This document shows, piece by piece, positions 3,728-35,003 of a DNA stretch of 50,466 nucleotides. The position numbers and the translations under genes were made by a program. Below the pieces are notes generated by a model. The model saw only the letters and a program-made list of their open reading frames with translations. It was not told where the DNA came from and searched no databases. The number at the start of each line of letters is the position of its first letter. The stretch's first letter is position 1. Source of the DNA: Promethearchaeia archaeon (GTDB lineage Archaea; Asgardarchaeota; Lokiarchaeia; Sigyniarchaeales; SOKP01); NCBI GenBank assembly GCA_029856105.1, contig JAHQWH010000036.1:1-50466 (forward strand). The letters are read 5' to 3'.

Positions 3728-3771
3728 AATACTATATGTAAAAAGAAAAATATAATAAAAATTAAAAAAAA

Positions 3772-8666: not shown

Positions 8667-8747
8667 AAATGATGATATTCTTTATCTTTTATAAAATTTA
8701 ATTATGGATCAATAAGAAATGAAGTTATATTTCAGACAACGATAAAT

Positions 8748-9386
8748 TTATTTTTTAAATACAAACGCAATCAAATGTTCAATTCCGAATTCCTTAGAAG
8801 TTTGAATTTTGTGATGGATTTTGAGAGCTTTCATCCCTAACAGAGAAAATATCGTAAGAATCTCTTCTTCTCTGTAAGCACGTGAATACATTTTTTCGCC
8901 CATTAATTCAACAATAACTTCTTTGTCTACATCTTCACCTTCAACCCGGGGCTCATTTAGCGACAAGTATAATAAACCTTTGTCTTTCAGTGATTTAACG
9001 ATTCGATTTGCTACATCCTTGAATAACTGAGGGCTGAGTAAAAGCATTGAATAGCTTGAGAACACACCATCAAATTTTTTATCATAGTCTAAATCTGTCA
9101 TTGATAATTCTTTGAAATTAGCTAGAGGAACATTTTTTTGTGCGATTTTGATCATCTGGGACGAAATATCAACCCCTAAAACATTAAAACCTTTTTCTAC
9201 AAATAATTTAGCGAAAGGTAAGCCAGTTCCAGAGCCTAAATCTAAAATAAAACCATTTTTTGGGAGTCTATCACAAAAAAAATCAATTAACGGGTTTGAA
9301 CTTGTATATTTAGCTTTAGCATACTTTTCTGCTACATTATTCCAAGCTTTTTTGTTTAATGAAATAATGTTAAATTTTTCATCCAT
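8748..9386 (-). CDS. Class I SAM-dependent methyltransferase
   Basis: ILDLGSGTG, GVDIS. Confidence 0.9.
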   Translation of the reverse strand: MDEKFNIISLNKKAWNNVAEKYAKAKYTSSNPLIDFFCDRLPKNGFILDLGSGTGLPFAKLFVEKGFNVLGVDISSQMIKIAQKNVPLANFKELSMTDLDYDKKFDGVFSSYSMLLLSPQLFKDVANRIVKSLKDKGLLYLSLNEPRVEGEDVDKEVIVELMGEKMYSRAYREEEILTIFSLLGMKALKIHHKIQTSKEFGIEHLIAFVFKK

Positions 9387-9419
9387 ACATAGAAATTTAA
9401 TTTCTACAACAAAATAAAA

Positions 9420-10391
9420 TTAAGCTTCCAATAATTTTTGGAGAATCAAAGGCATAGAATAAATATCCCAATAGTTATGTTCAATAATTTCTTTTACTAA
9501 TCCCACATATCTTAAAGAATCTTCCAAATACTTTTTGTAGCACAATCCAACTAATCCACTTGGTAATTCGTTATCCCTTTTCAGATTTAATAGTTTATCT
9601 TCCATGTTTGTTAGCGTATATTTCTCGAAGCTTCCTCTGTATTTCCTACGGCAATTATGATATAGGTCTATATGGTGAAATTTTGTGTTAAACCTCTCGT
9701 AGGGCTCTTCCTCGTTAGTAATCATTGGATTTTCGTCAAAAAAATACAGAAAACGGTTGGCGATGTAAGGAATATCAAATGATTTTCCGTTATAGCTAAT
9801 TAGACATTTAAAATTCGGTAAAATTGCCGTTTTAAGGTGCTCATTCATTGCGATCTCCTCTTCCAAGTCTCTTGCAAAAAGTATGCGGATTTCAAATTTA
9901 TCGTTTTTAAAAAATCCTAACCCAATAACAATTATGGGACTATCATACAATCCTAAAGTTTCTATATCGAGAAAAAGGAAATCCTCCTTATCAAAACAAA
10001 AAGCAACATCTAAATCGTAAATATATCTATTTCTACACAGAAGGTTGTATTTTTTATTTTCAATTAGATCCAAGATATGACGAGCAGATTCGTTGTATTT
10101 TAAATTAGTTCTCAAATCGTACAGAGATTGTACTCCTTTTTTATTTAGTTGATGTTCTATATTTTCACCAATATAATAAACCGTCTTTAAGTTACGAAGA
10201 AGTTTATTCCTTGAGAGAGTTAAATTTAAGTCGCATGAAAAAGTCTCTTCTTTCCAAGTAATTTCCATGAACTGCCCCATGCTATTTCTTACAATGGTGT
10301 GATTGCGGAAAATATCTTCGATTTTCTTGTCCTTAAATTGATCTGCTAAGTGAGTTATATCAAATGTCTCGAAGTTATAGAAGTAATCCAT
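9420..10391 (-). CDS. RNase H-like (YprB/RNase_H_2) DEDD exonuclease-fold protein
   Basis: FLDIETLG, SYNGKSFDIPY, HIDL, HNYWD. Confidence 0.85.
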   Translation of the reverse strand: MDYFYNFETFDITHLADQFKDKKIEDIFRNHTIVRNSMGQFMEITWKEETFSCDLNLTLSRNKLLRNLKTVYYIGENIEHQLNKKGVQSLYDLRTNLKYNESARHILDLIENKKYNLLCRNRYIYDLDVAFCFDKEDFLFLDIETLGLYDSPIIVIGLGFFKNDKFEIRILFARDLEEEIAMNEHLKTAILPNFKCLISYNGKSFDIPYIANRFLYFFDENPMITNEEEPYERFNTKFHHIDLYHNCRRKYRGSFEKYTLTNMEDKLLNLKRDNELPSGLVGLCYKKYLEDSLRYVGLVKEIIEHNYWDIYSMPLILQKLLEA

Positions 10392-10478
10392 TATCAATAA
10401 TAAATAAGAATTTTTATTTAATAATTCAAACTCTGAAAATTTATAATAAAACTAAATAAATAAGGAAAAATGGATTTT

Positions 10479-11813
10479 TTAATAATCAATTTTAGGGATA
10501 TAATCTTCATTTTCTCTGCGTGGAGGCTTGTATTTAAAGAATCTTCGAGATTCACTGTCCTCTAGCACATAATTACTGCCCCCGCCATGTACCATACAAT
10601 AGGGGTCAAAAAGACCAATTTCATTGGCGTATTGTCTAGTAAAACCCCGACCACCCATAGTTCTGAAACAATGAATAGCGCTTTCAAACCCTAGTTCCGT
10701 TGTACTTATTTTTAAGCCCATTGTATTGGCTGCCATTAATTTAGAACCCACTAATTCGGGATGTTCGTCTAATTGCCTTACATATTGTATCATAGCAGAA
10801 ATTAATAAATTCAACTCTCGAATTTTTCGAGATATTGGAAATCGTATAACTTGATATTGATGTAATCTATGTTTAAATTGTTTACGCTGGAGGGCGTAGG
10901 CATGAGAATAAATCAATTTTTTCATGGTGTCACCTAAAGCCTCGGCACTTATAACCAAACGCTCTTCTGTTAATTGATGAAACATAATATCTAATCCATG
11001 TCCTTTAAGTAGATTTTCTTTTGGAATTTCAGTTCTGTCAAATATCAATCGGCTGACAAACGCATCGGTCATGCCATATGTTCTAACCCGAGAACTTAGA
11101 AAGTTTTTTAACTTCTGATTCTCCGTATCGACTATAACAGCGGCTAATTGTCCATTATTTAATCTCCCATATAAAATCATGTAATCAGCGATCATACCGT
11201 TAGTTATAAACAGTTTTTTACCTTTTGCGATTATTTTATCGTCTTTTTCTAGTAAAGATAATTCCATATTAAAAATATCAGACCCTGCGTTAAATTCAGT
11301 CATAGCAGAAGCAGCAATTTGACCATCTTTTGCAACAGGAGTTAAAAAATTTTCTTTTTGAGCATCATTGGAAGCGTAATTCACAGGATTGCAATAAAGC
11401 GTGCCTCCTGCAAGTCGCCCCATCTCTACGCTATAATTACCGGCAATATATCTCTCGCTATATTCACTCCACCGGCCACCACATAAAGCATAGGCAATTA
11501 AAGCGTTCCTAGTAATCCGCCCTACATCATAATCTTCTATGTTAAGAACTGTGGAATAATATCCTTTATTAGATAACTTTTTCATTATTCCAATAACTAT
11601 TTCTTTCTTTTTGTCTTGAGTAGGTTCCTCAACAAGATAGTTTAATTCTTCTAATTTCCTTAGTTCTGGATCAAGCTCTTTCTCCATAAATTCATAAAGT
11701 TCTGCTAAAAATTCTTTTTCTTGAGCGGTAAGCATGGGATTATTCAGTAAATCTAATTCTGGTACATATTTTTGGATTTTGATTTTTTCAAACTCTCTGA
11801 TTCTTGTATCCAT
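10479..11813 (-). CDS. Acyl-CoA dehydrogenase family protein
   Basis: AMTEFNAGSD, GKKLFITNG, QRKQF, MGGRGF. Confidence 0.9.
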   Translation of the reverse strand: MDTRIREFEKIKIQKYVPELDLLNNPMLTAQEKEFLAELYEFMEKELDPELRKLEELNYLVEEPTQDKKKEIVIGIMKKLSNKGYYSTVLNIEDYDVGRITRNALIAYALCGGRWSEYSERYIAGNYSVEMGRLAGGTLYCNPVNYASNDAQKENFLTPVAKDGQIAASAMTEFNAGSDIFNMELSLLEKDDKIIAKGKKLFITNGMIADYMILYGRLNNGQLAAVIVDTENQKLKNFLSSRVRTYGMTDAFVSRLIFDRTEIPKENLLKGHGLDIMFHQLTEERLVISAEALGDTMKKLIYSHAYALQRKQFKHRLHQYQVIRFPISRKIRELNLLISAMIQYVRQLDEHPELVGSKLMAANTMGLKISTTELGFESAIHCFRTMGGRGFTRQYANEIGLFDPYCMVHGGGSNYVLEDSESRRFFKYKPPRRENEDYIPKIDY

Positions 11814-11998
11814 ATTATTTCAATCATTTTTTTAATTTTTAAACTTTATTTTAGTTCTAATTAATTCTTTTGTGAATAAAATTTAAATTGATCATAATTA
11901 GAAATCTTTTAATCATAGTGAAATTAAAATATCATATCAATTAGATATTTAAAATCTAATTATTAAAAAAGAATTTTATTAAAAAAAGTGAATAAAAA

Positions 11999-13420
11999 AT
12001 GATTAAATTTAGCGATAAACAACTGAAAATCCCCAAAATGTCTAAACCTGTATACTTAGCTACTGTAGGCATGTCAAAATTCGACCGTGCTTTCCCTGAA
12101 ACTCGAACGGAGGAGTTATGTGTCCAAGCTTTAACGGCAGCTGCTGATTTTGTTAAGATGACCCCTGCTGAATTGAAAAGTTTCATTCATACTGCTTATT
12201 ACGGTCATTTTGCGGACCATTTTGGAGATCAATTATTAGGAGAAGCAGTCATTCACGATAGACTTGGTCTGGATCCATTAGGAACCATCGGTGTCAAAAC
12301 GGGCGGAGCTACGGGAGGATCCACCATGTGGGAGGCAATTAAAACCGTTGCATCAGGGTATAGCGATTGTGCCCTTGCTTTAGGTTGGGAGAGAATGGAT
12401 GAAGTTCCAACTGATGAAGGTAATCATCTCATTTCTGCAGCTGCAGATAAAGATTGGGAAACTCCATTAGGTCATATCTACACGGGTTACTACGCTGTAA
12501 TGGCTCAAAGATATTGGCAAATTTTTGGTAAAGCAGAAGAATCTTTTAGGAAAACTATGGCAGAAATTGCTGTCAAAAACCGTGGTTATGCAAGAATGAA
12601 TCCTCACGCACATGGACCTATGGAGATCACTGTTGAAGATGTAATCAATTCTCCTGTCATTGCTTATCCCTTACGTGCCTTGGATTGTTGTTTAATGAGC
12701 GTAGGATCTGCTTGCGGCGTTGTTTGCGATGAAAAAACTGCTTATGAGATAACTGATAACCCTCTTCGAATATGGATAGGTGCTGGAAGTCATACACTAA
12801 GAGTGGCTGATCGTCGTAATATGAAAATACCCCTTTTACCAAACGAAAAACCAGGACAATACGATAATTTAGGTAAAAGATTTCCTGGAGCCGATAGGTA
12901 TCCCGGTTTTAGTAGTTTTTTAGCTGCTCGTGTGGCGGCTTATTATGCCTATAACATGACTGGGGTTGTTGATCCAATTGATGATCTTGATGTTGTAGAA
13001 CTACACGATGCCTTTACAATTAGCGATATTCAAACTTATGAGGACATAGGTATTACTCCTTATGGAGATGGGCGTAGTTATATTGAGTCTGGTGAAGCAT
13101 ACCATACAAACCCAAACACTAAAAAACCAGGTAAATTACCTAGCAATTTATGTGGTGGATTAATCGGTTGTATGCATGCTGTTGGAGCAACCGGGCTTAT
13201 GCAAATTGCAGAAATTGGATATCATATATGGAATCGATGGGACGAAATTCATGAGCCCCATGAAAAATGGGACGCTTTTGGTAGAGAAAAACCGAAAGAT
13301 TGGTCAAGCCTTCAAGTAAAAGGGGCAAAAAGAGGTTTAGCAATAAGTCATGCTGGTGTGGGCTCTCATGTAACTTGTACAATTTTAATGCATCCAAATC
13401 ACTTAATCAAGGAGGAATAA
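11999..13420 (+). CDS. SCP2-type thiolase-fold protein (lacks the nucleophilic Cys)
   Basis: ELHDAF, GGLIGCMHAVGATG, VKTGGATGG. Confidence 0.9.
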   Translation: MIKFSDKQLKIPKMSKPVYLATVGMSKFDRAFPETRTEELCVQALTAAADFVKMTPAELKSFIHTAYYGHFADHFGDQLLGEAVIHDRLGLDPLGTIGVKTGGATGGSTMWEAIKTVASGYSDCALALGWERMDEVPTDEGNHLISAAADKDWETPLGHIYTGYYAVMAQRYWQIFGKAEESFRKTMAEIAVKNRGYARMNPHAHGPMEITVEDVINSPVIAYPLRALDCCLMSVGSACGVVCDEKTAYEITDNPLRIWIGAGSHTLRVADRRNMKIPLLPNEKPGQYDNLGKRFPGADRYPGFSSFLAARVAAYYAYNMTGVVDPIDDLDVVELHDAFTISDIQTYEDIGITPYGDGRSYIESGEAYHTNPNTKKPGKLPSNLCGGLIGCMHAVGATGLMQIAEIGYHIWNRWDEIHEPHEKWDAFGREKPKDWSSLQVKGAKRGLAISHAGVGSHVTCTILMHPNHLIKEE

Positions 13421-13425
13421 AAATA

Positions 13426-14025
13426 ATGCCAAAAACTGAAGAAGAAAAAGGTTTTGTTTCTGTTATTAATGGAAGATACAAACCAAAAGGAAAATTTCAT
13501 ATCATTGAGGCAAATCAACCGATTTTTAACAAAGACACAGGAAAATTAGCTGGTGTTACAAATCCTAGAGATATGACTTATATCCACTCTTATGGTGGTG
13601 AAGCTATTTTTTTCGAATCTCTTAGTAAGGGAAAATTGATGGCTACAAGATGCGATAATGATAAATGTGATTTCAAAGGATCGATCTACCTACCTTTCAG
13701 GATTTATTGCCCAGATTGTCTACGAAAAATGTTTGCAATTGATTTTACTGAGAAAGCAAAAAATAGCGCCAGAATTCATTCCTTCATTATAACCCATCGA
13801 GCGGGAGCGTTTAATACCCTAAAAAAGCCAATTAAATTCATTAATATAGAATTTGATGGTGCAGTCACAATATTAATGAGTTATCTCTCGGTAGGAGACC
13901 CCGAACTAGAAAAACGCGTGGTACCCATTTTTAAAACAAAAAACCCCACTTATACTATAATGGATCTCTCATTTGTTCCCGAAGGAACCTCAGAATCGGA
14001 ATTACCTGAAGGATTTACTTTTTAA
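13426..14025 (+). CDS. DUF35 Zn-ribbon/OB-fold thiolase partner
   Basis: GGAGG RBS then ATG 13426; CDNDKC and CPDC, followed by an OB-fold. Confidence 0.85.
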   Translation: MPKTEEEKGFVSVINGRYKPKGKFHIIEANQPIFNKDTGKLAGVTNPRDMTYIHSYGGEAIFFESLSKGKLMATRCDNDKCDFKGSIYLPFRIYCPDCLRKMFAIDFTEKAKNSARIHSFIITHRAGAFNTLKKPIKFINIEFDGAVTILMSYLSVGDPELEKRVVPIFKTKNPTYTIMDLSFVPEGTSESELPEGFTF

Positions 14026-14143
14026 GTTTTAATATTTTCTTATTTTTTTTTTAATTCCTTTTAAAATGTTTAATGAGTATAATCTTCTTTTAATAAATGA
14101 AAATTTTAGTGTATTGAAATTAAAAGAAAAAAAGTAAAAGAAT

Positions 14144-15031
14144 TTATTGTTGATAAAGATGTAATATTTTTCTCGCTTCTTCAGGCGTAGCAATTTCTCG
14201 CCCTGCTATTTTCGAAACTTTAGCGGCCCATTCTACTTGTTCCCACGAGCCTTTAGCTAATGCTCCATCAACTGTACGGATATTATCTTCTAAACCAACC
14301 CTTATGTGTCCACCCATTGCTGCGGCGCACATTCCTGCTTGAAATTGATTTCTTGCTACTCCACACACACTCCAGCTAGCGTCAGGTGGTTTTAAATTAA
14401 GCAAATGTGCTAAATTTTCGAAAGAAAAAGGGACACCACCCAAAACTCCAAAAACAAATTGGAAGTGAAGAGGTGGATCCAGAATCACCTTCGCTTGTTT
14501 GCTAAGATGAAGAATGTTATACATGCCTCCAAAATCATATACTTCGATTTCTGGTTTAACTTGATTTTTTTTCATTGTTTTCGCGAATTTTTGAATCGTA
14601 TCAAATGTATTTGCGAATATAGCCTTAGCACCAAGTCCAACGGCTCCTGTTTTATGGTCTCCAACAGCGAAGTTCATTGAATTGGAATTTAAGGAAGCAA
14701 TTGGAGGTTTAAATGTTGTAACAGGAGCTATTCTTTGTTTATCAGTTACTATTAAACTGATAGCAGAACTTAAGTTGATTAGAATATCTGGAGCCTTTTC
14801 TTTGATGTTATCTAATACGGCTTTAATTATTTCTAATTCGTGCGTTGGATTGCCTTTTTCTGGGTCTCTTGCGTGGATGTGCACAATTGCTGCTCCTGCA
14901 TCGTAACATTTTTTTGCCTCATCCCCAAATTCTTCGGGTGTATATGGAACAGCGGGATTTTGAGATTTTATCGTCGCAGCACCGGCGAGAGCGGCTGTTA
15001 TAACTAATTTTTTTGATAAATCTTCTGACAT
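14144..15031 (-). CDS. Beta-keto acid cleavage enzyme (BKACE/DUF849, Kce-like)
   Basis: GAAIVHIHAR, PEIEVYD, GHIRVGLEDN. Confidence 0.92.
   Translation of the reverse strand: MSEDLSKKLVITAALAGAATIKSQNPAVPYTPEEFGDEAKKCYDAGAAIVHIHARDPEKGNPTHELEIIKAVLDNIKEKAPDILINLSSAISLIVTDKQRIAPVTTFKPPIASLNSNSMNFAVGDHKTGAVGLGAKAIFANTFDTIQKFAKTMKKNQVKPEIEVYDFGGMYNILHLSKQAKVILDPPLHFQFVFGVLGGVPFSFENLAHLLNLKPPDASWSVCGVARNQFQAGMCAAAMGGHIRVGLEDNIRTVDGALAKGSWEQVEWAAKVSKIAGREIATPEEARKILHLYQQ
14216..14260 (+). repeat. 45-nt exact repeat shared by the BKACE paralogues (copy 2 at 15251-15295)
   Basis: aactttagcggcccattctacttgttcccacgagcctttagctaa is present in both genes. Confidence 0.85.
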
Positions 15032-15166
15032 TTTATATACCTATTTTTATTTTCGATTTTATTAAATTTAAAAATTTTTTCTTATTTTTTTAATTCTTCG
15101 TAAAAATATTATAAAAAAAAATATAATGGTTTAGAATTAAACTTGAGTTTAAATTCAACCTAATCC

Positions 15167-16066
15167 TTATAGTGACACATGTTCTTGCTTTAGATGAAAT
15201 ATTTTTCTTGCTTCTTCACCTTGTGCTAGTTCTCTCCCGGCTATTTTTGCAACTTTAGCGGCCCATTCTACTTGTTCCCACGAGCCTTTAGCTAACTCAC
15301 CTGAAACGGCACGAGTGTTGTCCTCTAAACCAACACGGATATGTCCGCCCCATGCGGCAGCACATAATCCAGCTTGAAATTGTTGCTTAGAAACGCCACA
15401 AACGCTCCAAGTAGCATTCGAAGGCTTTAGATCGAGCATTAAAGCGAGATTTCTTGGTGTGAATGGAATTCCTCCAAGTACGCCCCATACAAACTGGAAA
15501 TGAAGCGGTTGAGTGAATGCACCTTCTTGTCTATTTAGGAAAAGCATACTATATATACCTCCTAAGTCGTAAATTTCCATTTCCGGTTTAGTTCCAGCTT
15601 TTTTCATCTCTTTCGCAAATTTCGAAATAGTTTTAAATGTGTTTGCGAAGATATTTCCTGCTCCCATACCAACTTTTCCTGTTCTGTAATCACCAACTGC
15701 GAAATTCATGGACGCAGTATTTAACGAAGCTAAAGGTGGTTTGAAGGTTTGAACCGGCGCTATTCTTTGTTTATCAGTAGCAACTGAACTAATTGCACTA
15801 CTTAAGTTGATTATTAAATCTGGTGATTTTGATTTTATATTATCTAACACTGCTTTTATTAAATCTAAGTCATGCGTTGGATTACCTTTTTCGGGATGTC
15901 GAGCATGGATATGGACAATCGCAGCACCCGCATCATAACATTTTTTCGCTTCATCTCCAAATTCTTCTGCTGTATATGGAACGCTTGGATTATTTTCCTT
16001 AGTTGTGATTGCACCAGCTAATGCTGCTGAAATAACTAACTTATTTTCTGGGTTCGATTCTGACAT
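15167..16066 (-). CDS. Beta-keto acid cleavage enzyme (BKACE/DUF849), tandem paralogue
   Basis: Same motifs as the adjacent gene and clearly similar to it. Confidence 0.92.
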   Translation of the reverse strand: MSESNPENKLVISAALAGAITTKENNPSVPYTAEEFGDEAKKCYDAGAAIVHIHARHPEKGNPTHDLDLIKAVLDNIKSKSPDLIINLSSAISSVATDKQRIAPVQTFKPPLASLNTASMNFAVGDYRTGKVGMGAGNIFANTFKTISKFAKEMKKAGTKPEMEIYDLGGIYSMLFLNRQEGAFTQPLHFQFVWGVLGGIPFTPRNLALMLDLKPSNATWSVCGVSKQQFQAGLCAAAWGGHIRVGLEDNTRAVSGELAKGSWEQVEWAAKVAKIAGRELAQGEEARKIFHLKQEHVSL

Positions 16067-16359
16067 TTTTTATACCTATTTTTAATAGTATGGATTGTAA
16101 TAAATATTATAATTTTATTGTTGAATAAAAATTAAGTATCTTTCTATTTAAATTTTAAAAGTATGATAATTCTTAAAAAAGACTGGTTTTAAAAATTTCC
16201 TTTAAAGATCTACAAAATTGATCATAAATTAGGGAAAAATGATTGATTCTCAAAATTTAAAAAATAGAACTATTGAAAATTTTTTATACCTAATTCAATA
16301 TTTATGATTATAGCATTTTGATAAATATTTTAAATAAAATAAAAAGGAAAAAAACAGAT

Positions 16360-17502
16360 ATGGATAAAGTAGGAATAGTTGGATGTACACAAACTAAATA
16401 CGAAGCAGATAAAATCGATCAAACTTACTCCGAACTTGTTTTTGAAGTTGTAAAAAAGCTTTACAACGAATTAGGAATTACTAATGACGATATAGGGTGC
16501 GTTATTACTAGTTCCAATGATTTTAACGATGGTAGAACGATCGCAAACATGGCTATACAAGATGCTGTAGGATCTGTTGGAAAAGCAGAGTCTAGAGTCT
16601 CTGGAGATGGTGCTTTCGCTTATATTTACGGCGCAATGAGAATTTTGTCAGAGTCATTCGATACGGTAATGGTAGTTTCACATTGTAAATGCTCTGAAGT
16701 TAACCAATATTTAGTAAACAATACAATTTTTGATCCTTATTATCAAAGACATTTAGGTTTAGATCAAATTTCATCAGCAGGTTTAATGGCTAACATGTAT
16801 ATGAATAAATATGGTGTGACTGAAGACCAAGCCGCTAAAGTTGTAGTTAAAAATCGGAAAAACGCTCTCAATAATCCTTATGCGCATTTACAGAAAGAAG
16901 TTTCAATTAACGATGTTCTTAATTCAAAGATGATGGCACATCCTCTAAAAGAATTAGATTTCCCTCCTTTCTCAGATGGTGCGGTGGCTATGCTATTAGC
17001 AAAAGAAGATATAGCTAAAAAGATGACAGATACGCCCGTTTGGCTTAATGGTTATGGAAGTTGTACTGATGCGTATTATTTAGGCCATAGGAACATGACG
17101 GATTTGGTAGGTTTAGAATTAGCCGCTAAGCAAGCTTACAAAATGGCGGGTATTACCGATCCTATTAAAGAAATGGATGTTTGTGAAGTAAGCGAAAACT
17201 TCAGTGCTCACGAATTAATGATTTACGAAGCACTAGGATTATGCGGTCCTGGAGAAGGTGGAAAATTTATAGAGGGAGGGGAAACAGAGATGAATGGTTC
17301 TATTCCAGTAAATCCCTCCGGAGGCGTGTTATCGAGTAATCCCATAATGGCAAATGGTTTAATTAGAGTCGCTGAAATTGCGTTACAATTGAAGGGTAAG
17401 GCAGGGAAAAGACAAATTCCTAACGCAAAAACGGGTTTAGCTTACGGAATGAACGGAATATGTTCTCAAGGAAACTGTGTATTAATATTTGGAGGCGAAT
17501 GA
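16360..17502 (+). CDS. Thiolase-fold protein, Ltp4-like
   Basis: SSNDFNDGRTI, ESRVSGDGAFA, VNPSGGVLSSNP; no catalytic Cys/His motifs. Confidence 0.85.
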   Translation: MDKVGIVGCTQTKYEADKIDQTYSELVFEVVKKLYNELGITNDDIGCVITSSNDFNDGRTIANMAIQDAVGSVGKAESRVSGDGAFAYIYGAMRILSESFDTVMVVSHCKCSEVNQYLVNNTIFDPYYQRHLGLDQISSAGLMANMYMNKYGVTEDQAAKVVVKNRKNALNNPYAHLQKEVSINDVLNSKMMAHPLKELDFPPFSDGAVAMLLAKEDIAKKMTDTPVWLNGYGSCTDAYYLGHRNMTDLVGLELAAKQAYKMAGITDPIKEMDVCEVSENFSAHELMIYEALGLCGPGEGGKFIEGGETEMNGSIPVNPSGGVLSSNPIMANGLIRVAEIALQLKGKAGKRQIPNAKTGLAYGMNGICSQGNCVLIFGGE

Positions 17503-17504
17503 AT

Positions 17505-18671
17505 ATGACAAAACACGATGTGGCCGTTGTCGGCATGGGTCAAACTAAATTCAGAAGTAAGAGAAGAGATGTTAATATCCCTGAAATGATATACGAAGCC
17601 GTTAAAATGGCTCTTGACGATGCTCAACTTGAACCTAAAGAGATAGATGCCATAATAATTGGGAATATGGACCATTTTGAAGGAATTAATTTCTCTGAAT
17701 TGTTCTGTGGAATTGAAGGTGCTCCTGGATATTTAAAACCTGTAGTTAAGGTTGCAACAGGAGGCACAACCGGTAGTTCCTTAGCTATATGTGGTTATCA
17801 CAATGTTGCCTCAGGAATTTATAACAAGGTTTTAGTTGTTGGTTGGGAAAAATTAAACGAAGGTGGAGCTACTACTGGGATAATAACGGCATTTGATCCG
17901 GTATGGGAAAGACCATCTTTAGCCGGTGCTCTCGGTCCACTAGCCCTTATGGCAGGTATGTATTCGGCCAAATATGGAATAACATCAGAACAAGCAGCAA
18001 AAGTTACTGTAAAAAATAGGAGTAACGCGGCAAATAATCCATTTGCACATTTACAGATGCCAAATATTACCGTTGATTATGTTATGAGCTCTCAAATGAT
18101 ATCATATCCTTTAAGGCTACACGATGTTTGCCCTCAAAGCGAAGGCGCTTGTGCTCTTATTTACGCTAATGAGGAAGAAACTAAAAAGATAACCGATAAC
18201 CCCGCTTGGTTCCACGCGGTAGAAACTGCCCATTATTACACTTTTGGCACTGATGAAGCAATGTTCGATCTTCCTACTGCTACAATCGCGTCTAAGAAAG
18301 CTTATAAAAAAGCAGGCATTAAAAACCCCGTAAAGGATTTAGATGTAGCAGAAATCTATGAACCGACATCTTGGAGCGAACTTTCATGGACCGAAGCTTT
18401 AGGTTTTTGCAAACCTGGTGAAGGCGGAAAATTATTAGACGAAGGAATAACATTAATGAGTGGAGAGTTTCCTGTCAATCCCTCAGGTGGCGTTTTAAGC
18501 ACAAATCCTATTGGGGCTACGGCATTAGTGCGAGTTGCAGAAGCTGCAATTCAAGTAATGGGAAGGGGTGAGAAAAGACAAGTACCCGATGTAGAAAAAG
18601 CTCTCGCAATGGGATTTGGCGGAAGTCTTTGGACGGAAATTCTAATATTAGGAAAAGAACCTTTGAGGTGA
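17505..18671 (+). CDS. Thiolase-fold protein, Ltp3-like
   Basis: DHFEG, EIYEPTSWSELSWTEALGF, VNPSGGVLSTNPIGATALVRVAEAAIQVMG. Confidence 0.85.
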   Translation: MTKHDVAVVGMGQTKFRSKRRDVNIPEMIYEAVKMALDDAQLEPKEIDAIIIGNMDHFEGINFSELFCGIEGAPGYLKPVVKVATGGTTGSSLAICGYHNVASGIYNKVLVVGWEKLNEGGATTGIITAFDPVWERPSLAGALGPLALMAGMYSAKYGITSEQAAKVTVKNRSNAANNPFAHLQMPNITVDYVMSSQMISYPLRLHDVCPQSEGACALIYANEEETKKITDNPAWFHAVETAHYYTFGTDEAMFDLPTATIASKKAYKKAGIKNPVKDLDVAEIYEPTSWSELSWTEALGFCKPGEGGKLLDEGITLMSGEFPVNPSGGVLSTNPIGATALVRVAEAAIQVMGRGEKRQVPDVEKALAMGFGGSLWTEILILGKEPLR

Positions 18672-18675
18672 TAAT

Positions 18676-19167
18676 ATGAGTAGAAAAAAAGGTCAAGAAA
18701 AAGTGTTTGAAATTAAATGGAAAACTGACTTACCGTACAGATATTCAATTGGCAAACTTGCAGTTAAATTTTTCGAGGAACTCAAAAAAAATAAAAAGAT
18801 AATGGGAAGTAAATGCTCAAAATGTGGTAAGGTCCATTTTCCACCAAGAGCAGTTTGTGCCGATTGCATGGTTGAAATGACTATCGATGATATGGTTGAA
18901 TTATCCCCTAAAGGTACTTTGGAAGGATTCACTGTAGTTAATTATCCGTTCACTGATCCTAACACTGGGGGTATTCGTCCATTTCCATATGGTTATGCCC
19001 TATTCAAATTGGATGGCGCTGATACCTATACAATGCATTTCGTAAATGAAACCGATGTGACTAAGATGAAAATAGGACAACGAGTCGAGGCGGTATTTAG
19101 CGAAGAACTTATAGGTGATTTAACTGCAGATATTCCATATTTTAATATAGTTAAAGAGGAGGAATAA
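18676..19167 (+). CDS. DUF35 Zn-ribbon/OB-fold protein
   Basis: CSKC..PPRAVCADC; KLDGADT; GQRVEAVF. Confidence 0.9.
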   Translation: MSRKKGQEKVFEIKWKTDLPYRYSIGKLAVKFFEELKKNKKIMGSKCSKCGKVHFPPRAVCADCMVEMTIDDMVELSPKGTLEGFTVVNYPFTDPNTGGIRPFPYGYALFKLDGADTYTMHFVNETDVTKMKIGQRVEAVFSEELIGDLTADIPYFNIVKEEE

Positions 19168-19180
19168 GAGGTAGAGAAAA

Positions 19181-19630
19181 ATGACAGATGAAATTGAGAA
19201 AAAAGTATATCACGGTCGAATTAAAGTTCCATACAAGCATACTGCAGGGGCTTATGTAGAAAGGTTTATTACTGAAATAGGAAAAAACAACAAAATTTTC
19301 GGCGTAAAATGCCCAAAGTGCAAAAAAGTTTACGTTCCTCCCAAAATGATTTGTTTCGAATGTTTCGAAAAAATGGAAGAATGGATCGAAGTCGGAAACC
19401 AAGGAACCGTTAAAGGATTTACTGTTATCACACATTCAACACCTGTGATGCCCTTAGAACCCCCTTTTGCTTATGGAATTATCACGCTCGATGGTGCAGA
19501 TACAGATTTTGTGCACATAATAAAAGAAAGCGATCCAAAAAAGCTGAAAATAGGTATGAGAGTTGAGGCTGTGTTTAAAGAGGCGCCACGAAAAAGAATA
19601 TTGGATATAGAATATTTCAATCCAATATAA
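19181..19630 (+). CDS. DUF35 Zn-ribbon/OB-fold protein
   Basis: CPKC..PPKMICFEC; TLDGADT; GMRVEAVF. Confidence 0.9.
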   Translation: MTDEIEKKVYHGRIKVPYKHTAGAYVERFITEIGKNNKIFGVKCPKCKKVYVPPKMICFECFEKMEEWIEVGNQGTVKGFTVITHSTPVMPLEPPFAYGIITLDGADTDFVHIIKESDPKKLKIGMRVEAVFKEAPRKRILDIEYFNPI

Positions 19631-19715
19631 GATAATTTATTTATAACTTTTTTTTATTTCTATTATTATTATAATATTAAATTATTAACGATTTGAATTT
19701 TAAAAGTGATATAAA

Positions 19716-20540
19716 GTGGATAATAATATTGTTTTAGTAGAAGAAAACGAAGAAAAAACCATTACTACCATTAGATTAAACCGATTAGCTAAAAAAAATG
19801 CGATGAATTATGAAATGATAGTAGCATTTGAAAAAGCACTGGATCAAATTGAGCGCACTAACACTAGAGTTGTTATAATAACGGGTAGTGAGGAAATTTT
19901 TAGTGCTGGTATTGATTTAAATTTTTTAACTGGACAAGAAAAAGATCCTGAAGGAGTCATTCCAGATTTAAAAATCCCTCGAAACTTTAGGTATTTTATG
20001 AATACTAGACTACATACTGTCTTTACAAAAATTGAAAAAATGGAGAAACCTGTAATAGCTAAAATTAACGGCTACTGCCTCGGAATGGGTTTTGAATTAG
20101 CTTTAGCTTGTGATTTTCGGTTTTGTCGAGATTCTGCGATCTTTAGCCTGCTAGAAACTAAGATGTCAATAAACCCAGATGTAGGAGGTACAATAAGGTT
20201 AACTAGATTAGCTGGCATTCAAAATGCGAAAGATATCATTTTAACTGGGAGAGAATTTGATGGAAATGAAGCTTACCGTTTAAGAGTGGTGAACAGAGTA
20301 GCTAAAACACCAGATGAATTAGATTCGATAATTAAGATGTATACTGATGAACTTATTGAAAGTGGTCCATTAGGTATTGGTTTAGCTAAAAAATTAATTG
20401 ATGATTGTTATGGTAAGGATGTAGCTTTTGGATTAGAATTAGAAACACTTATCAGCTCTCAATTACTCCAAACAAAAGATACTGTGGGCGGAGCTTTAGC
20501 TAGGCTCCAAAAAACAAAACCCAAATGGCGTTGGAAGTAA
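19716..20540 (+). CDS. Enoyl-CoA hydratase/isomerase (crotonase)
   Basis: FSAGIDL, KPVIAKINGYCLGMGFELALACD. Confidence 0.9.
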   Translation: MDNNIVLVEENEEKTITTIRLNRLAKKNAMNYEMIVAFEKALDQIERTNTRVVIITGSEEIFSAGIDLNFLTGQEKDPEGVIPDLKIPRNFRYFMNTRLHTVFTKIEKMEKPVIAKINGYCLGMGFELALACDFRFCRDSAIFSLLETKMSINPDVGGTIRLTRLAGIQNAKDIILTGREFDGNEAYRLRVVNRVAKTPDELDSIIKMYTDELIESGPLGIGLAKKLIDDCYGKDVAFGLELETLISSQLLQTKDTVGGALARLQKTKPKWRWK

Positions 20541-20624
20541 AATTCATAAATTTTTAATTATTTTTTATTTATTTTTTTTCTTAATTGTAATTTTTTATTA
20601 TTTAAAATATATATAATAAAAAAA

Positions 20625-21824
20625 TTATGTTAAAGTTAAGTCTAAATGGATATCTGTAATTGGGTAAGATATACAAGGATGTATATAGCTAAAGTCCTTA
20701 TCCACTTCCCGTATAGTCACCTCTGGTGGGATAAAAACTTTGCCCGAAATCATTTTTGTTCGGCAGAGAGCACATTCACCAGAGCGACATCCACTAGCGA
20801 TTTCGACTTTCAGTTCTTTTGATCGTTCTAGGCTATTTAAGAGAGTTTCTATACATGATCCTTCAATTACTATTTTTTCTTTCGAAGCAAGACCTCTAAA
20901 TTCTACGGTAATTTGAACTTTCTTAGAGGTATCTATTTCTCGAGGCCACCCCATAACTTTAGTGATGTCGTCAGGAACTCCAAACGCCTCGTAATAAATT
21001 CGATGCTTAGGAACTCCAAGAGCTTTTAATTCTTCATCTACGAATTGGTACATGGCACGATTGCCAACAATGTAAAAGTACTTGTTTTCAATCGATACGA
21101 TTTCGTTTAATATCTTATCCTTTGAGATAAAACCACATTCTCCTTTCCATTCTGGAGTTGGTTCAGAGAGGATATATTTGATTTTGATATTTGACCTTCT
21201 TTTTTGGATATCTTCTAATTCACTTCTAAACAAGATATCTCTCTCAGTTAAACTTCCGAATACTAACCAAATGTTTAAGGGAAGTCTTTTCTCGGAGATT
21301 TCTCTTAGCATTGACATAAAAGGTGTAATACCACACCCACCAGCAATAAATACCAAATCTTTGCCGTGAAAGATGGGATTGTAGTAGAGATTTCCTAAGG
21401 GCTCAGTTACTTCAAAAATATCGCCAATTTTTACATTTTCAAAAAGAAAAGGGCTAACAAAACCACCTTCTTTCTTTCTAACACCTAATTCGTAGTAGGA
21501 GAGTTGATTTGGCGACGAGACAAGAGAATACGGGCGCGAGGTTCGAACTCCATTAATTTCTACAGTAAGGCCTACATATTGCCCCGCACGAAAGGGCGCT
21601 AAAGGCTTATCGGGTTTCGCAGAAATAAATCTAAATAGTTTAGTATCGCGTGAAAGAAGTTCAATATCAGTAACTAGTAGAGATTGCTTTTCGGGATGAA
21701 TCCTATTGGATAAATTTTCCAAACCGTCGTAATACCACGGTAGAGGTTCGACCTCATCGCGCCGTTTTTTTAACTTTTCAGCTTTCTGATACTTTTTTAC
21801 ATCTTCCATTATTTCCTTTTCCAT
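20625..21824 (-). CDS. FNR-type FAD/NAD reductase with C-terminal [2Fe-2S] ferredoxin (PaaE/KshB/Hcr-like)
   Basis: FRAGQY, RPYSL, IAGGCGITPF, CRSGECALC...C. Confidence 0.9.
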   Translation of the reverse strand: MEKEIMEDVKKYQKAEKLKKRRDEVEPLPWYYDGLENLSNRIHPEKQSLLVTDIELLSRDTKLFRFISAKPDKPLAPFRAGQYVGLTVEINGVRTSRPYSLVSSPNQLSYYELGVRKKEGGFVSPFLFENVKIGDIFEVTEPLGNLYYNPIFHGKDLVFIAGGCGITPFMSMLREISEKRLPLNIWLVFGSLTERDILFRSELEDIQKRRSNIKIKYILSEPTPEWKGECGFISKDKILNEIVSIENKYFYIVGNRAMYQFVDEELKALGVPKHRIYYEAFGVPDDITKVMGWPREIDTSKKVQITVEFRGLASKEKIVIEGSCIETLLNSLERSKELKVEIASGCRSGECALCRTKMISGKVFIPPEVTIREVDKDFSYIHPCISYPITDIHLDLTLT

Positions 21825-30701: not shown

Positions 30702-31073
30702 CTATTTAGTTTTCAAAACAAGGGTTATTGCTCGAGTTAGGCGTATTACTTCAATGATTTTTCCTTTTGTAACTTTTATCTCTTCTCTACTAATCGCATG
30801 AGTGAAATCGCCCTTACCATTGCAGATTTTTACAATTGCGTTATTGTCTCCCGTTATAATTATGTTAGGATCTGAAGCAGTTCCGTTAATCAGTTCAGCT
30901 TTTCTTCCTTTTACCTTAAGATAAAAAGAGTCCTCGTTATCCAAGTTAAATTGGAAAATCATATCCCAATCAACTTCTTTACCACCAATGTTAGTAAAAA
31001 AAACAGCTTCAACTTTTGCGTTCCCGCTCATAATTTCAACTATTTTACTTAAACTTTCACTTGCTATACCCAA
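30702..31073 (-). CDS. SCP2 sterol/lipid-binding domain protein
   Basis: FQFNL..FYLKV..G..DPNI; AISREEIKV; last gene of the thiolase-DUF35 operon. Confidence 0.75.
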   Translation of the reverse strand: MGIASESLSKIVEIMSGNAKVEAVFFTNIGGKEVDWDMIFQFNLDNEDSFYLKVKGRKAELINGTASDPNIIITGDNNAIVKICNGKGDFTHAISREEIKVTKGKIIEVIRLTRAITLVLKTK

Positions 31074-31075
31074 TT

Positions 31076-31576
31076 TTACTCACCACCTTCAAATTCTGGT
31101 TTATTAATCCATCTTTCCCACTCATCTTCGGGAACAAAGAAGAAATCTGTCATTCTTCCTTCTCGGTCCTCCCTCTTTTTAAACACTGCTTTAACTCGTT
31201 GTCCTTTCTTAATTTTTGAAGGGACCAAATTTTCTGAAAATACCCCTTGAAATAAAGCAGTATCTGCGTCATCTAATTTAATAAATGCACAACCGTAGGG
31301 AACATTTTGAATAAACTCAGCGGCCCCATACCATACTATCGTGCTAATTTGAATCGTGCCGGCGTGGGAGAGTTCAATCCAATCGGTATCTTCATAACAC
31401 TCTGAACAATTAATTCTTGGAGGCATCCATACTTTACCACACTTCTTGCATTTTGTTCCTAATATCTTCTTATCATTCATTAATTCGATGAAGAATTTTG
31501 ATTGCCCGCCCATGGTATACTTATATTCTATTAGGATTTTATCCCTAATTTCATGTGACTGAAATTCTTCGCTCAT
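31076..31576 (-). CDS. DUF35 Zn-ribbon/OB-fold protein
   Basis: CKKC..PPRINCSEC; KLDDADT; ATGA overlap with the thiolase stop. Confidence 0.9.
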   Translation of the reverse strand: MSEEFQSHEIRDKILIEYKYTMGGQSKFFIELMNDKKILGTKCKKCGKVWMPPRINCSECYEDTDWIELSHAGTIQISTIVWYGAAEFIQNVPYGCAFIKLDDADTALFQGVFSENLVPSKIKKGQRVKAVFKKREDREGRMTDFFFVPEDEWERWINKPEFEGGE

Positions 31577-32859
31577 GGTTTTTTCAACCCCTCCTCGTTT
31601 GTCATTACAATTATCGCAGCATAGGCGGCACCAGGCCCTCCAATCGAATGCGCTATAGCCCTTCCTTTTTCAATAGTTACTTGATGTTTACCTGATTCCC
31701 CTCTTAATTGAAGAGCAGCCTCTCCAGTGCTCATAATTCCCGTCGCACCAACAGCATGTCCACATCCTATCAATCCACCTGAAGGACAACACGGGAGTTC
31801 TCCCTCTAACCAAGGGCCTTCTCCAGGATTTTCAAATGTTTTTTCAATCCATGGACCACCTTGACCAAATGGCACAAAACCTAATTCTTCGTAGCTAATG
31901 ACTTCTTGACTGGCAAATTGTCTTTATGACAAGTAATGTCCAGAGAAGGCATCGTGAAGCTCTGCTAGGTCTATTTGGCTTTTAATCTTATTATAGTCCA
32001 ATCCCGCCATTTTATAAGCTGCCTTTGCTGCATATATATTTGAATATAGGCGTCCAATTTCTTCCCTATTACCAATAAAACAATCTGTATTCGCAGCACC
32101 TACGCCAGTTATCCAAATTGGATTCTCAATCTTTAGTTCTTTTACTTTTTCTTCGCTTGCTAATATTAAAGCTGCCGAAGCTTCTGAATAAAGACAACAA
32201 TCAAGCATCTTGAAAGGGTAGCAAATTATCCTGGAATTCAGGACGTCTTCTACAGTTAATTTCATCGGAGATTGGGCTTTGGGATTATTTATCGCGTTCC
32301 CATGGTTTTTAACGGAAACTAAAGCCATTTGTTCTTCGGTTGGATTACCGAATTCTTCAAAGTGCGCGTTTACCATTGAAACATAGGAGCTTGCCGCCAT
32401 CATGCCCATAGGATATTCGTAAGTCATATCAGCAGAATAAGCAATGGCATTCAAAACCTCTGGTGTTGTCGTACCCGTTTTTTCGTCATAACAATCATTA
32501 CATTTTTCTACGCCTAAGCAGAGGCATAAATCAGAAAGACCTGAAGCAACTTCCGCGTAGGCCATTCTCACGGTGTATCCTCCCGTAGCACCACCGGAAG
32601 CGATTCGAGTTCCTGGTTTGTTGTTCATTCCGATATATGAGTTTATAAAAATGTCCGGCATGAATTGTCGTTCGAATAGTTCGTTGTAAATACCGTAAAC
32701 AGTAGATTCTAAATCTCTATGAGTTATCTCAGCCCCATTTTTGTTTGCGTCTTCCAAAGAGAGCTTAGTCGCGTCATAGGCGAGTTCAAAATGCGTTTTA
32801 TCCATATATCTTGCTTTAAAAGGAGTAATTCCAACTCCAATAATAGCTACTTTTTTCAT
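31573..32859 (-). CDS. SCP2-type thiolase-fold protein, two exons (32859..31938 and 31907..31573), 418 aa after splicing
   Basis: The two tracked ORFs share one frame. Removing 30 nt gives ELHDAFSGQEVISYEELGF...PSGGLIGCGHAVGATG. Confidence 0.88.
31908..31937 (-). other. Candidate bulge-helix-bulge (tRNA-type) intron in mRNA, 30 nt
   Basis: The mRNA reads CUUCU-CUGG-[AC^A]-UUACUUGUC-AUAAA-GACAAUUUG-CCAG-[UC^A]-AGAAG. It has a 4-bp helix CUGG/CCAG, two 3-nt bulges, an exon stem CUUCU/AGAAG and an in-frame UAA in the intron loop. Confidence 0.85.
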
Positions 32860-33065
32860 TCTTCTCATTTTAATTGTGTTATTTTAAATTTGATTTTAAT
32901 TATAAGTTATATTAGATTCGTTTGTTAATTAATTTTATAACGATTTGAGAAATGCATATTGAAAAGAAATTTCTTAAATTTTTGCTTTATCAAGGTCTCG
33001 CTTTGTGATGAATAAATAAACTTTTTAATGGTATCTTTTAAATAAAATTTCAATTTAATAATCTT

Positions 33066-33857
33066 ATGAGCAATCAAGATTTAATTTTGTATGAATTGAG
33101 AGGACGTATCGCTATAATCACAATCAATAGACCAGAAAAAGCGCATTCATTTAACGGTGACATGTTAAAATCTCTACACGCGAAGTTGATTAGAGCAGAT
33201 AATGATGAAAAAGTTAGATGTATTTTGATAAAAAGTACTGGTCAAAAATTCTTTTCTGCGGGTTACGATTTGAAAGAAATTCAGGGTGATCCAATGAATG
33301 TGGCTATTATTCAACAGTGGGGGAGAAAGGTCAATGAAACAATGCTTCTTATGAAAAAACCGATAATTACGCAAATTCAAGGCATTGCTATTGGTTTTGG
33401 AGTAATGTTAGTATTAGCTTCTGATTTAAAAGTGTTTGCAGACAGACCGATAGATGATTTATATTTAAGGTTACCAGAACTTGCAATTTCAGCATTTCCA
33501 CAGACAGGAGCAACATTACTGCCCTTATTGGCTTTTGGTTTCAACTATGCTAAAAATGCGCTGTATACCGCTGATAAAATAGGACTAAAAGAACTAAAGA
33601 ATATTAATTTCCCTACTAGAATTTTTCCACTCGATAAAATAGATCCAGAATCCGTTGCATTTGCAAAAGAAATTAGTAAATATCAACCAAAGTTCTCAAT
33701 CTTCCTAAAATCAATGTTAACTATTATGGAAAAAGGTCGTATTAAGTCGTATTTTGACTTAGAAGATGAATGCGGGAAGGTGGCTTACGATAACAGCATT
33801 AAAGACTTAAAGGAAATAGATGCTTTTATAAAAGAGCTACATCAGAAATTCACATAG
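33066..33857 (+). CDS. Enoyl-CoA hydratase/isomerase family protein
   Basis: NRPEK, FSAGYDL, KPIITQIQGIAIG, LPE. Confidence 0.88.
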   Translation: MSNQDLILYELRGRIAIITINRPEKAHSFNGDMLKSLHAKLIRADNDEKVRCILIKSTGQKFFSAGYDLKEIQGDPMNVAIIQQWGRKVNETMLLMKKPIITQIQGIAIGFGVMLVLASDLKVFADRPIDDLYLRLPELAISAFPQTGATLLPLLAFGFNYAKNALYTADKIGLKELKNINFPTRIFPLDKIDPESVAFAKEISKYQPKFSIFLKSMLTIMEKGRIKSYFDLEDECGKVAYDNSIKDLKEIDAFIKELHQKFT

Positions 33858-33980
33858 ATAATAAAATTAAGGAAATACATTTCGATTTCTTTTTTTATTT
33901 AAACTTAATAAGAAAATATTTTTTAATTGCAAAAAAGTATTATTAACTATCATAATTTTAAAAATAGGAAAGAATCAAAT

Positions 33981-35003
33981 ATGATTAAAACTAAAATAAC
34001 AGAATCATTTGGGATAAAATATCCAATATTGAGCGCTCCGATGGGTCCATTCTACACGACCGAGTTATCTGTTGCTGTTTCTGAGGCGGGAGGGCTTGGT
34101 GTTGTAAGTCACGCAACTTTACAAGGAAAAAGTTCGATAAAGGATATGGAAAAGCAGTTAGATTATGTAATTGAACATACTGATAAACCATTTGGCCTTA
34201 ACATTCGAACTGCTCGCGTTCAGACTGATCATAAGATTATGTTGAGAAAAATTGCTCAATTGAGTAATTCAAATCCAAAAATTCGCGAACAGTTAATCTA
34301 TTTGCTAACAAGTGCTGGAAGCCCACGAAATGCTAGTAAAATATTAAAACAAAAGGCACCTCATATCAAGCACTATCATGTTGGTCCAGCTTTATGGCTA
34401 GTTGATAAAATATACGCTTCAGGATGCGATGGTGTTGTTGCTACGGGAACGGAAGGGGGCGGTCATCAAAGTTATGAAGGGATTAGTACATTGGTTCTGG
34501 TTCAACAAGTTGCCCAAAAATACCCCGAAAAACCACTAATTGCTTGTGGCGGTATTGCAAGTCCAGAAGGCGTAGCTGCGGGATTAGCTATGGGGGCCGA
34601 CGCTGTTGCTATGGGAACGCGATTTATAGCTTCTAGTGAAAGCGAATTCCATCCTAACTATAAAGCATTAATTCCACCTGCGACTGCTCGAGATACATTG
34701 CTTACTACAGGTGGGTTTGGACCAATAAGACTATTGAAAAATAAATACTGCTTAGAACATGGAGCGCTCATAACAAAAGAAGATAAAATTAAGCAAGAAT
34801 TAGCTTACGATCTGGATGGATTTATGGAAGATCTTCATCATTACGAAATCGTATACACTAAAGGAGATGTAGATAATGGTGCTATTCCAGTGGGCCAAAC
34901 ATGTGGCCTTATTGACTCGATAATGGATGTTGGCGATATCCTTACCAGTTTTACAAAAGAAGCAGAAAAAATATTAAAGAATTTGTGTGCTAATATCTAT
35001 TAA
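33981..35003 (+). CDS. Nitronate monooxygenase/FabK-like FMN enoyl reductase
   Basis: YPILSAPM, GTEGGGH, ACGGI, AMGTRF. Confidence 0.88.
   Translation: MIKTKITESFGIKYPILSAPMGPFYTTELSVAVSEAGGLGVVSHATLQGKSSIKDMEKQLDYVIEHTDKPFGLNIRTARVQTDHKIMLRKIAQLSNSNPKIREQLIYLLTSAGSPRNASKILKQKAPHIKHYHVGPALWLVDKIYASGCDGVVATGTEGGGHQSYEGISTLVLVQQVAQKYPEKPLIACGGIASPEGVAAGLAMGADAVAMGTRFIASSESEFHPNYKALIPPATARDTLLTTGGFGPIRLLKNKYCLEHGALITKEDKIKQELAYDLDGFMEDLHHYEIVYTKGDVDNGAIPVGQTCGLIDSIMDVGDILTSFTKEAEKILKNLCANIY

Follow-up and report, generated by a model that had tools for sequence, protein, structure and literature searches.

The closest described counterpart of the locus treated here is the bulge-helix-bulge (BHB) intron in the pre-mRNA of cbf5 (pseudouridine synthase), which is found in the Crenarchaeota, in Desulfurococcales and Sulfolobales (Yokobori et al. 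2009, PMC2738675). In the literature searched, BHB splicing of an archaeal coding sequence is documented for crenarchaeal cbf5, and work on Asgard archaea covers interrupted tRNA genes only. Asgard tRNA genes are heavily interrupted (PMC11291895; bioRxiv 10.64898/2026.10.13.758758); neither of these two sources mentions introns in protein-coding genes, and our literature search found no description of BHB introns in Asgard protein-coding genes. We analysed a stretch of 50,466 nucleotides (nt) from Promethearchaeia archaeon (GenBank assembly GCA_029856105.1, contig JAHQWH010000036.1, positions 1 to 50,466 of the forward strand; referred to as the window), in which a minus-strand gene for an SCPx-type thiolase is interrupted by a 30-nt insert at 31937..31908. 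The insert is interpreted as an archaeal-type (BHB) intron in the thiolase pre-mRNA that would be spliced by EndA and RtcB. This interpretation is strongly supported by the sequence comparisons, and we assign it a probability of roughly 0.87.

The cbf5 and thiolase cases are alike in that a short BHB-flanked intron lies in a protein gene, its removal is assigned to the tRNA endonuclease and ligase, and its presence is patchy. They differ in lineage (Asgard/Promethearchaeota, not Crenarchaeota) and in the host gene, which is metabolic in the present case. They also differ in the uniform architecture of the thiolase inserts (about 30 nt, with a 4-base-pair (bp) helix, a stem of roughly 9 bp and a 5-nt loop) and in their spread, with seven or more sites, up to four inserts per gene, and inserts also in the genes for uL11 and for a DUF2229/HGD-D-like protein. 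Splicing of cbf5 was shown on RNA, whereas that of the thiolase is deduced from sequence. Asgard tRNA introns share with the thiolase insert the motif, the predicted cut positions, the enzyme set and an intron-rich lineage; unlike them, the thiolase insert resides in an mRNA, where the motif's exon half is made up of codons and synonymous sites are therefore frozen (see below). The BHB motif and its mechanism are known; the lineage, the host genes, the uniform 30-nt architecture and the many sites per gene are new.

In eukaryotes, the HAC1/XBP1 mRNA undergoes unconventional cytoplasmic splicing, in which cleavage by Ire1 is followed by ligation by RtcB or Trl1. The likeness to the model proposed for the thiolase lies in a structure-defined mRNA intron, a protein endonuclease, a tRNA ligase and an unspliced mRNA that gives a different or truncated product. 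The two differ in the nuclease (Ire1, not EndA/Sen), in the recognized structure (two stem-loops, not a BHB) and in the stress regulation of HAC1/XBP1.

The interrupted thiolase gene and its 30-nt insert

A single minus-strand frame runs from the ATG at 32868 to the stop codon at 31573 and contains one TAA, at 31926-31924; at the interruption it reads ELHDAFSG-HYLS*RQFAS-QEVISYEELGF. Pfam places Thiolase_N on the upstream open reading frame (ORF) and positions 52-142 of Thiolase_C_1 (profile length 144) on the downstream ORF, and the ORFs are therefore the halves of one SCPx-type thiolase. The Thiolase_C_1 domain is whole only once the exons are joined, as exon 2 begins at profile position 52 of 144. 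Orthologue P0021 is 90% identical to the gene over residues 1-418, with one TAA inside the match. The presence of both thiolase domains and of an adjoining zinc-ribbon/OB-fold gene places the enzyme among the SCPx/archaeal-type thiolases with a DUF35 partner. Gene callers, both in the window and in public records, annotate two ORFs of 311-314 and 66-115 residues. The features of the gene and of the motif, all on the minus strand, are as follows.

31573..32868, minus strand: SCPx-type thiolase gene, interrupted, comprising exon 1, the 30-nt candidate intron and exon 2 including the stop codon (Pfam and orthologue match)
31938..32868, minus strand: exon 1, ending in ...HDAFSG and the initial C of a Gln codon (orthologues go on with QEVISYEELGF)
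31573..31907, minus strand: exon 2, opening with the AA of the Gln codon and continuing as EVISYEELGF... up to the stop codon (substitution rates, and coding conservation from the junction onwards)
31908..31937, minus strand: 30-nt candidate BHB mini-intron, A-UUAC-UUGUC-AUAAA-GACAA-UUUG-CCAG-UC (lacking in 28 aligned uninterrupted orthologue coding sequences)
31940..31948, minus strand: 5' exon strand of the motif, outer helix CUUCU (31948-44) and central helix CUGG (31943-40) (folding, register scan)
31937..31939, minus strand: 5' bulge ACA, with a predicted cut between 31938 and 31937 (register scan)
31918..31932, minus strand: intron hairpin UUGUC-AUAAA-GACAA (folding; variants keep the pairing)
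31910..31913, minus strand: 3' strand of the central helix, CCAG, in the intron (folding, register scan)
31907..31909, minus strand: 3' bulge UCA, with a predicted cut between 31908 and 31907 (unpaired in the minimum-energy fold)
31902..31906, minus strand: 3' exon strand of the outer helix, AGAAG (folding)

The insert carries the in-frame UAA (31926-24). Its central helix CUGG/CCAG is complete (4/4 pairs) and is flanked by the bulges ACA and UCA, with an exon helix on one side and an intron helix on the other; as in a tRNA intron, each strand leads from the 4-bp helix through a bulge into the next helix. The exon helix CUUCU/AGAAG has 5 bp and is extended by GAUG/CAUU past one mismatch. Only in the register 31937..31908 does a 4/4 central helix coincide with a restored protein. 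Removal of these 30 nt leaves UUC UCU GGA CAA GAA (FSGQE), with a new Gln codon composed of C from exon 1 and AA from exon 2. Cuts placed behind the second base of both bulges give exactly the sequence that about 50 orthologues have. The folding energy of the 71-nt region is -18.5 kcal/mol (z = -2.9 versus shuffles), and the minimum-energy fold holds the exon helix, the GAUG/CAUU extension, CUGG/CCAG, the 3' bulge UCA and the hairpin UUGUC-AUAAA-GACAA. In this fold the 5' bulge consists of A31939 alone, C31938 and A31937 being paired with G31914 and U31915. Scans of the window with Rfam and ARAGORN gave no match.

Most of what the initial annotation had stated about this element from the window alone could be reproduced. 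The ORFs at 31924-32868 and 31573-31875 do form one frame with an insertion, with the coordinates and reading given; the helices, bulges and hairpin that it named are all present at 31948..31902; and its cuts after the second nucleotide of each bulge yield an in-frame FSGQE that equals the orthologue sequence exactly. The insertion had been sized from a 7-residue spacing between HDAF and (Y/T)ExxG, which is seen in the one paralogue compared (11999-13420, HDAF-TISDIQT-YEDIG); this argument is superseded by the orthologues. The description of the motif as canonical is slightly generous: all elements are present, but the 5' bulge is one base in the minimum-energy fold.

In the proposed mechanism, the transcript would fold such that exon CUUCU-CUGG pairs with intron CCAG and exon AGAAG, exposing the 3-nt bulges ACA and UCA on either side of the 4-bp helix. 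The splicing endonuclease, probably an (alpha-beta)2 EndA, would then cut after the second base of each bulge, and RtcB would join 31938 to 31907 to give the junction GCCTTCTCTGGAC/AAGAAGTC with its C/AA (Gln) codon. The spliced reading would be HDAFSG-Q-EVISYEELGF, with the junction-spanning residues HDAFSGQEVISYEELG and the junction peptide HDAFSGQEVISYEELGFVPFGQGGPWIEK. The product is predicted to be the full 421-residue enzyme with its C-terminal catalytic loop, and translation of the unspliced mRNA would end in an inactive fragment of 314 residues.

A search with exon 1 returned about 50 full-length uninterrupted orthologues (400-419 residues), all of which read HDAFSGQEVISYEELGF. They derive from metagenome-assembled genomes named Promethearchaeota or Hermodarchaeota, which supports the Asgard origin suggested earlier for the window. 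The same search returned truncated proteins, of which three end in ...SGHYLS*, one ends in ...HDAFRRVIN* and one continues in a shifted frame. In the protein collection nothing reached 98% identity to the spliced product; full-length matches were 93% identical at best.

Four independent ENA/JGI contigs (L001-L004) and the species genomes G241, G242 and G233 contain the 30-nt insert in identical form. Variant inserts were found in L008, L049-L051, L055 and L065. The L008 variant has the bulge UUA and an A-to-G exchange in the exon that gives GGAAG, the U.G pair being kept and the junction codon, CAG, still encoding Gln; L065 also has the bulge UUA and likewise gives Gln at the junction. Hairpin variants stay paired as well, through a U.G pair in L008 and, in the L005/L053 type, through A-U instead of G-C. 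At L005, L006 and L053 a 30-nt insert lies 5 nt upstream and can be aligned position by position with the window intron; its central helix is UUUU/GAAA, not CUGG/CCAG, and in its stem A-U takes the place of the G-C of the window. The 5-nt offset could have arisen by sliding of the intron or by a separate insertion. At the same site, L007 has an insert of 29 nt that shifts the frame. The alignment of orthologues thus shows an insert that is patchy in its presence and whose variants keep the helices by compensatory change.

The insert family, the candidate splicing enzymes and other interrupted genes

An uninterrupted orthologue was searched against 400 genomes of the phylum. The gene was found in 104 genomes, almost all of one family, and about 20 of the matches contain stops or break off mid-gene. 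The interrupted genes were aligned with 28 uninterrupted coding sequences to place the inserts. Thiolase inserts are 28-35 nt long and lie at about nt 32, 376, 379, 442, 454/457, 538 and 921, seven or more sites. A single gene contains up to four of them (four in G231), the relatives concerned being L065 (G231:C318), L064 (G233:C16) and L066-L068. The sites at about nt 442 and 457 are about 15 nt apart and would enclose a micro-exon of about 5 codons.

For each insert, the cut positions that restore the protein (scored with fixed bounds) were tested for agreement with the BHB rule. A perfect 4-bp central helix is formed at the protein-restoring cut in 32/41 inserts and three of the four pairs are formed in the remaining nine, versus 4/4 pairs in 2/637 other registers used as a control. 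Among 33 unique inserts, pairing at the central-helix positions is 81-96%, each of them showing 4-6 pair types; in a control in which the 3' partner was slid by 1-3 nt the values were 12-84%, with one of 24 above 57%. All of the same 33 inserts (100%) form the first inner pair, and the inner stem is paired in 57-81%. From these pairing statistics, the general form of the family is a bulge-helix-bulge plus a strong intron stem, and the window intron is among the members with a good exon helix as well. The typical build is 1 nt, a 9-bp stem with a 5-nt loop, 4 nt and 2 nt (30 nt in total), and the first intron base is A in 40/41 inserts. Compensatory change has kept the structure, as seen in the pairing of the central helix and in the frozen synonymous exon sites. 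A minimum of seven changes is needed for site 921, with its 18 carriers, and five for site 538, with its six (on a gene tree including paralogues, on which repeated gain and loss are not separable); presence is therefore patchy.

Two copies of the thiolase orthologue are present in some genomes (G124, G245 and G268). In G124:C175 (L024/L050) they form a tandem pair, uninterrupted at 485-1738 and intron-bearing at 2802-4085. Near-identity between the G124 copy and one from G268, a member of another family, hints at transfer or at an error in binning.

The genome from which the window derives (G000) is a metagenome bin of 3.66 Mb in 238 contigs, 92% complete with 6% contamination. It encodes both a splicing endonuclease and an RtcB ligase. 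Two EndA paralogues of about 200 residues (PF01974 at C107:11230-11454 and C12:9220-9468) and one RtcB (PF01139 at C191:86017-87324) match above the curated cut-offs. An (alpha-beta)2 EndA, a two-subunit enzyme of broad specificity, is reported for 44/60 Asgard genomes (bioRxiv 10.64898/2026.10.13.758758), and the two paralogues probably correspond to this form. ARAGORN identified 23 tRNA genes, 16 of them with introns. This low count at 92% completeness fits tRNA genes that are too interrupted for standard finders. One ARAGORN call, a tRNA-Phe with an intron of 1171 nt, looks spurious.

Two other genes of this genome carry inserts of the same kind. In a DUF2229/HGD-D-like gene, the partner of a coenzyme A (CoA)-enzyme activase, a 30-nt insert with an in-frame TAA lies at C10:60290-60319 (locus L069:1391-1420). 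It forms a perfect helix-bulge-helix-bulge-helix (hBHBh') motif with a 7-bp exon helix, the central helix GGUG/CAUC, the bulges AAA and UUU and a stem of 9-10 bp, and the 30 nt are missing exactly at the predicted cuts in eight orthologues, four of which are 84-89% identical at the DNA level. An identical copy of the insert lies on C26, and the two contigs share about 8.5 kb of identical sequence, which suggests that this part is duplicated or was binned redundantly.

The second is the single-copy gene of the ribosomal protein uL11 (C16:9697-10255, locus L107), where the sole L11_N match of the genome covers profile positions 26-58. It contains inserts of 32 nt (9747-9778) and 29 nt (9829-9857 of C16), each of which has a 4/4 central helix only in the frame-restoring register, and the spliced N-terminus matches uninterrupted orthologues across both junctions (...VTGGS/ASGGPP... 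and ...PTGI/NIKDVV...). That a single-copy ribosomal protein gene needs two removals argues that the cell really removes the inserts. The public uL11 records of relatives are N-terminally truncated (127-142 residues), probably from the same cause. Compared by eye, the thiolase, C10 and two uL11 inserts have a common architecture and AU-richness and no evident shared sequence, which gives no support to a single family of mobile sequences.

The initial annotation had also proposed scanning the genome for split ORFs flanked by BHB motifs, and this was partly productive. A strict census (BHB shape plus ORF restoration, requiring 70 or more codons on one side and 50 or more on the other) yielded 773 loci. 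Hairpins in AT-rich intergenic DNA between neighbouring genes made up nearly all of them, and the only loci to stand out were the thiolase and the C10/C26 gene, the latter being found in this way. A relaxed scan performed no better than decoys, as discussed below.

Competing explanations and the reach of the intron reading

Of the competing explanations, translational recoding survives best, although we consider it improbable. The ribosome would either hop over the insert or read through the TAA. Known bypass elements, namely T4 gene 60 and the 'byp' inserts of Magnusiomyces (yeast) mitochondria, are short, hairpin-forming, in some cases stop-containing sequences inside conserved coding sequence. 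The thiolase inserts are likewise short and hairpin-forming, with a stop codon in that of the window, and recoding would leave no spliced RNA junction to be found in public contigs. Hopping, however, requires matched take-off and landing codons, which the inserts lack: the direct repeat at the boundaries spans 2 nt for the window insert, 0-2 nt for 27/35 inserts and 0 nt for 12/35. Readthrough could not handle the 15/35 unique inserts (33 thiolase, one C10, two uL11) with a length that is not a multiple of 3, nor those with two or three stops that occur among the relatives. Boundaries that obey the BHB cut rule, at the frequency given above over control registers, are not predicted by hopping, and pairing covaries between exon and intron strands. 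Readthrough and ribosome hopping were rejected on these grounds (insert lengths, stops, boundary repeats, BHB register and covariation).

A broken or split gene is still less probable. The locus could be a pseudogene, or it could encode 314 residues and a separate C-terminal piece starting at GTG 31875; two ORFs are indeed annotated here and in public records, and the genome has other thiolase paralogues. Against a broken gene, the exon downstream of the stop codon has a ratio of nonsynonymous to synonymous substitution rates (dN/dS) of 0.02-0.18 at dS values of 0.08 to >1 among carriers of the site-921 insert. This purifying selection runs counter to the relaxed selection expected of a pseudogene. 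The insert is moreover maintained in at least 12 distinct sequences across species, and single-copy uL11 bears the same kind of insert. After insert removal, reading frames are clean in 29/29 interrupted genes. Against a split gene, the 11 codons QEVISYEELGF between the insert and the first possible start codon (GTG 31875) are conserved as protein with synonymous variation (e.g. AGC/TCT/TCG for Ser), so that coding conservation begins at the junction, upstream of 31875; relatives have exons down to about 15 nt between inserts and up to four inserts per gene. The pseudogene and two-polypeptide readings were rejected on the selection data and the exons of about 15 nt.

The same exons bear a second constraint. 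In 12 distinct carriers, 1/6 third positions vary within the 17 exon nt of the motif, by a change that keeps a wobble pair, and 21/26 vary elsewhere in the same 96 nt. In six uninterrupted sequences of the same clade the corresponding values are 5/6 and 26/26. The synonymous sites of the motif are thus frozen in carriers only, and RNA structure therefore constrains the exon sequence only where the intron is present.

An artefact of assembly or sequencing, or a DNA-level element such as a small transposon or repeat that is excised from the DNA ahead of expression, is the least credible: the bin is fragmented and partly contaminated and the insert length is uniform at about 30 nt, yet the same insert occurs in independent ENA and JGI assemblies and in several species genomes (at least five independent sources), on which the artefact was rejected, and the transposon-like element was rejected as unlikely as the insert boundaries lack target-site duplications and, apart from the hairpin, terminal inverted repeats, inserts of different genes share architecture and not sequence, and no empty (intron-less) allele with the same flanks was found in metagenome contigs.

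Five findings weigh against the BHB intron itself. The strict two-bulge conformer of the window motif has an energy of -16.5 kcal/mol and thus lies 2 kcal/mol above the minimum-energy fold. In the window intron, two mismatches lie at the base of the inner helix (5 bp). Over the whole insert family, pairing of the outer (exon) helix does not exceed that of the slid controls, and many members are therefore relaxed motifs, the cutting of which would depend on the specificity of EndA. A relaxed census based on ORFs only gave equal numbers of loci in true and decoy registers; ORF evidence alone therefore cannot count introns, and homology is needed. Finally, the exact spliced junctions of the thiolase and uL11, sought as RNA or as an intron-less allele, had no matches in public metagenome (JGI) and metatranscriptome contigs, and the protein collection contained neither a protein of at least 98% identity to the spliced products nor a full-length one above 93% identity to the exons of this strain.

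The earlier proposal that a metabolic mRNA is spliced by the tRNA machinery nevertheless gains support from the fit of the junction, the variants, covariation, selection, and the EndA and RtcB genes. Cutting and ligation on RNA, the identity of EndA and RtcB as the enzymes, the efficiency of splicing and any regulation are what we infer from these sequence data. As a statement about a single case, the proposal stood with respect to the thiolase intron and was too narrow, as there are many inserts across species and at least four in this genome. We consider it somewhat more probable than its converse that a lineage-wide population of EndA-cut mini-introns of about 30 nt repeatedly colonizes and leaves protein genes of Lokiarchaeia at places where codons supply the exon half of the BHB. 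The thiolase would then be a hotspot with patchy gain and loss, essential genes of the uL11 type would depend on splicing, and routine splicing of mRNA by the tRNA machinery would be normal in the archaea nearest to eukaryotes and may gate protein output.

In one genome, correct translation of both the thiolase and the single-copy uL11 would require the removal of short structured inserts. If confirmed on RNA, this would mean that Asgard archaea routinely splice mRNAs with protein enzymes and that standard gene callers systematically truncate or split such genes. Intron gain and loss in coding sequence, the constraint of exons by a splicing structure and the coupling of transcription, splicing and translation would then be testable near the eukaryotes. 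A descent relation to spliceosomal introns is not demonstrated by these data.

Gene surroundings and further observations

The thiolase gene is followed by two genes on the same strand.

31076..31576, minus strand: downstream DUF35/ChsH2-type partner gene, zinc ribbon and OB fold (Pfam PF12172, PF01796)
30702..31073, minus strand: SCP2-like gene in the same operon-like row (Pfam PF02036)

The DUF35/ChsH2-type gene overlaps the stop codon of the thiolase by 4 nt, and the order of these two genes is the same in every related locus examined. The window is rich in genes of the beta-oxidation or mevalonate type at 7482-21824 and 30702-35003. These regions include an enoyl-CoA hydratase (33066-33857) and an NMO-family oxidoreductase (33927-35003). 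Further thiolase paralogues lie at about 12050-13219, 16360-17457 and 17517-18656, and the window contains further DUF35-type genes. Elsewhere in the genome, a match to the Rad51/RadA family (C45:30694-31248, minus strand) stops at profile position 196/244 inside an open frame of 285 residues.

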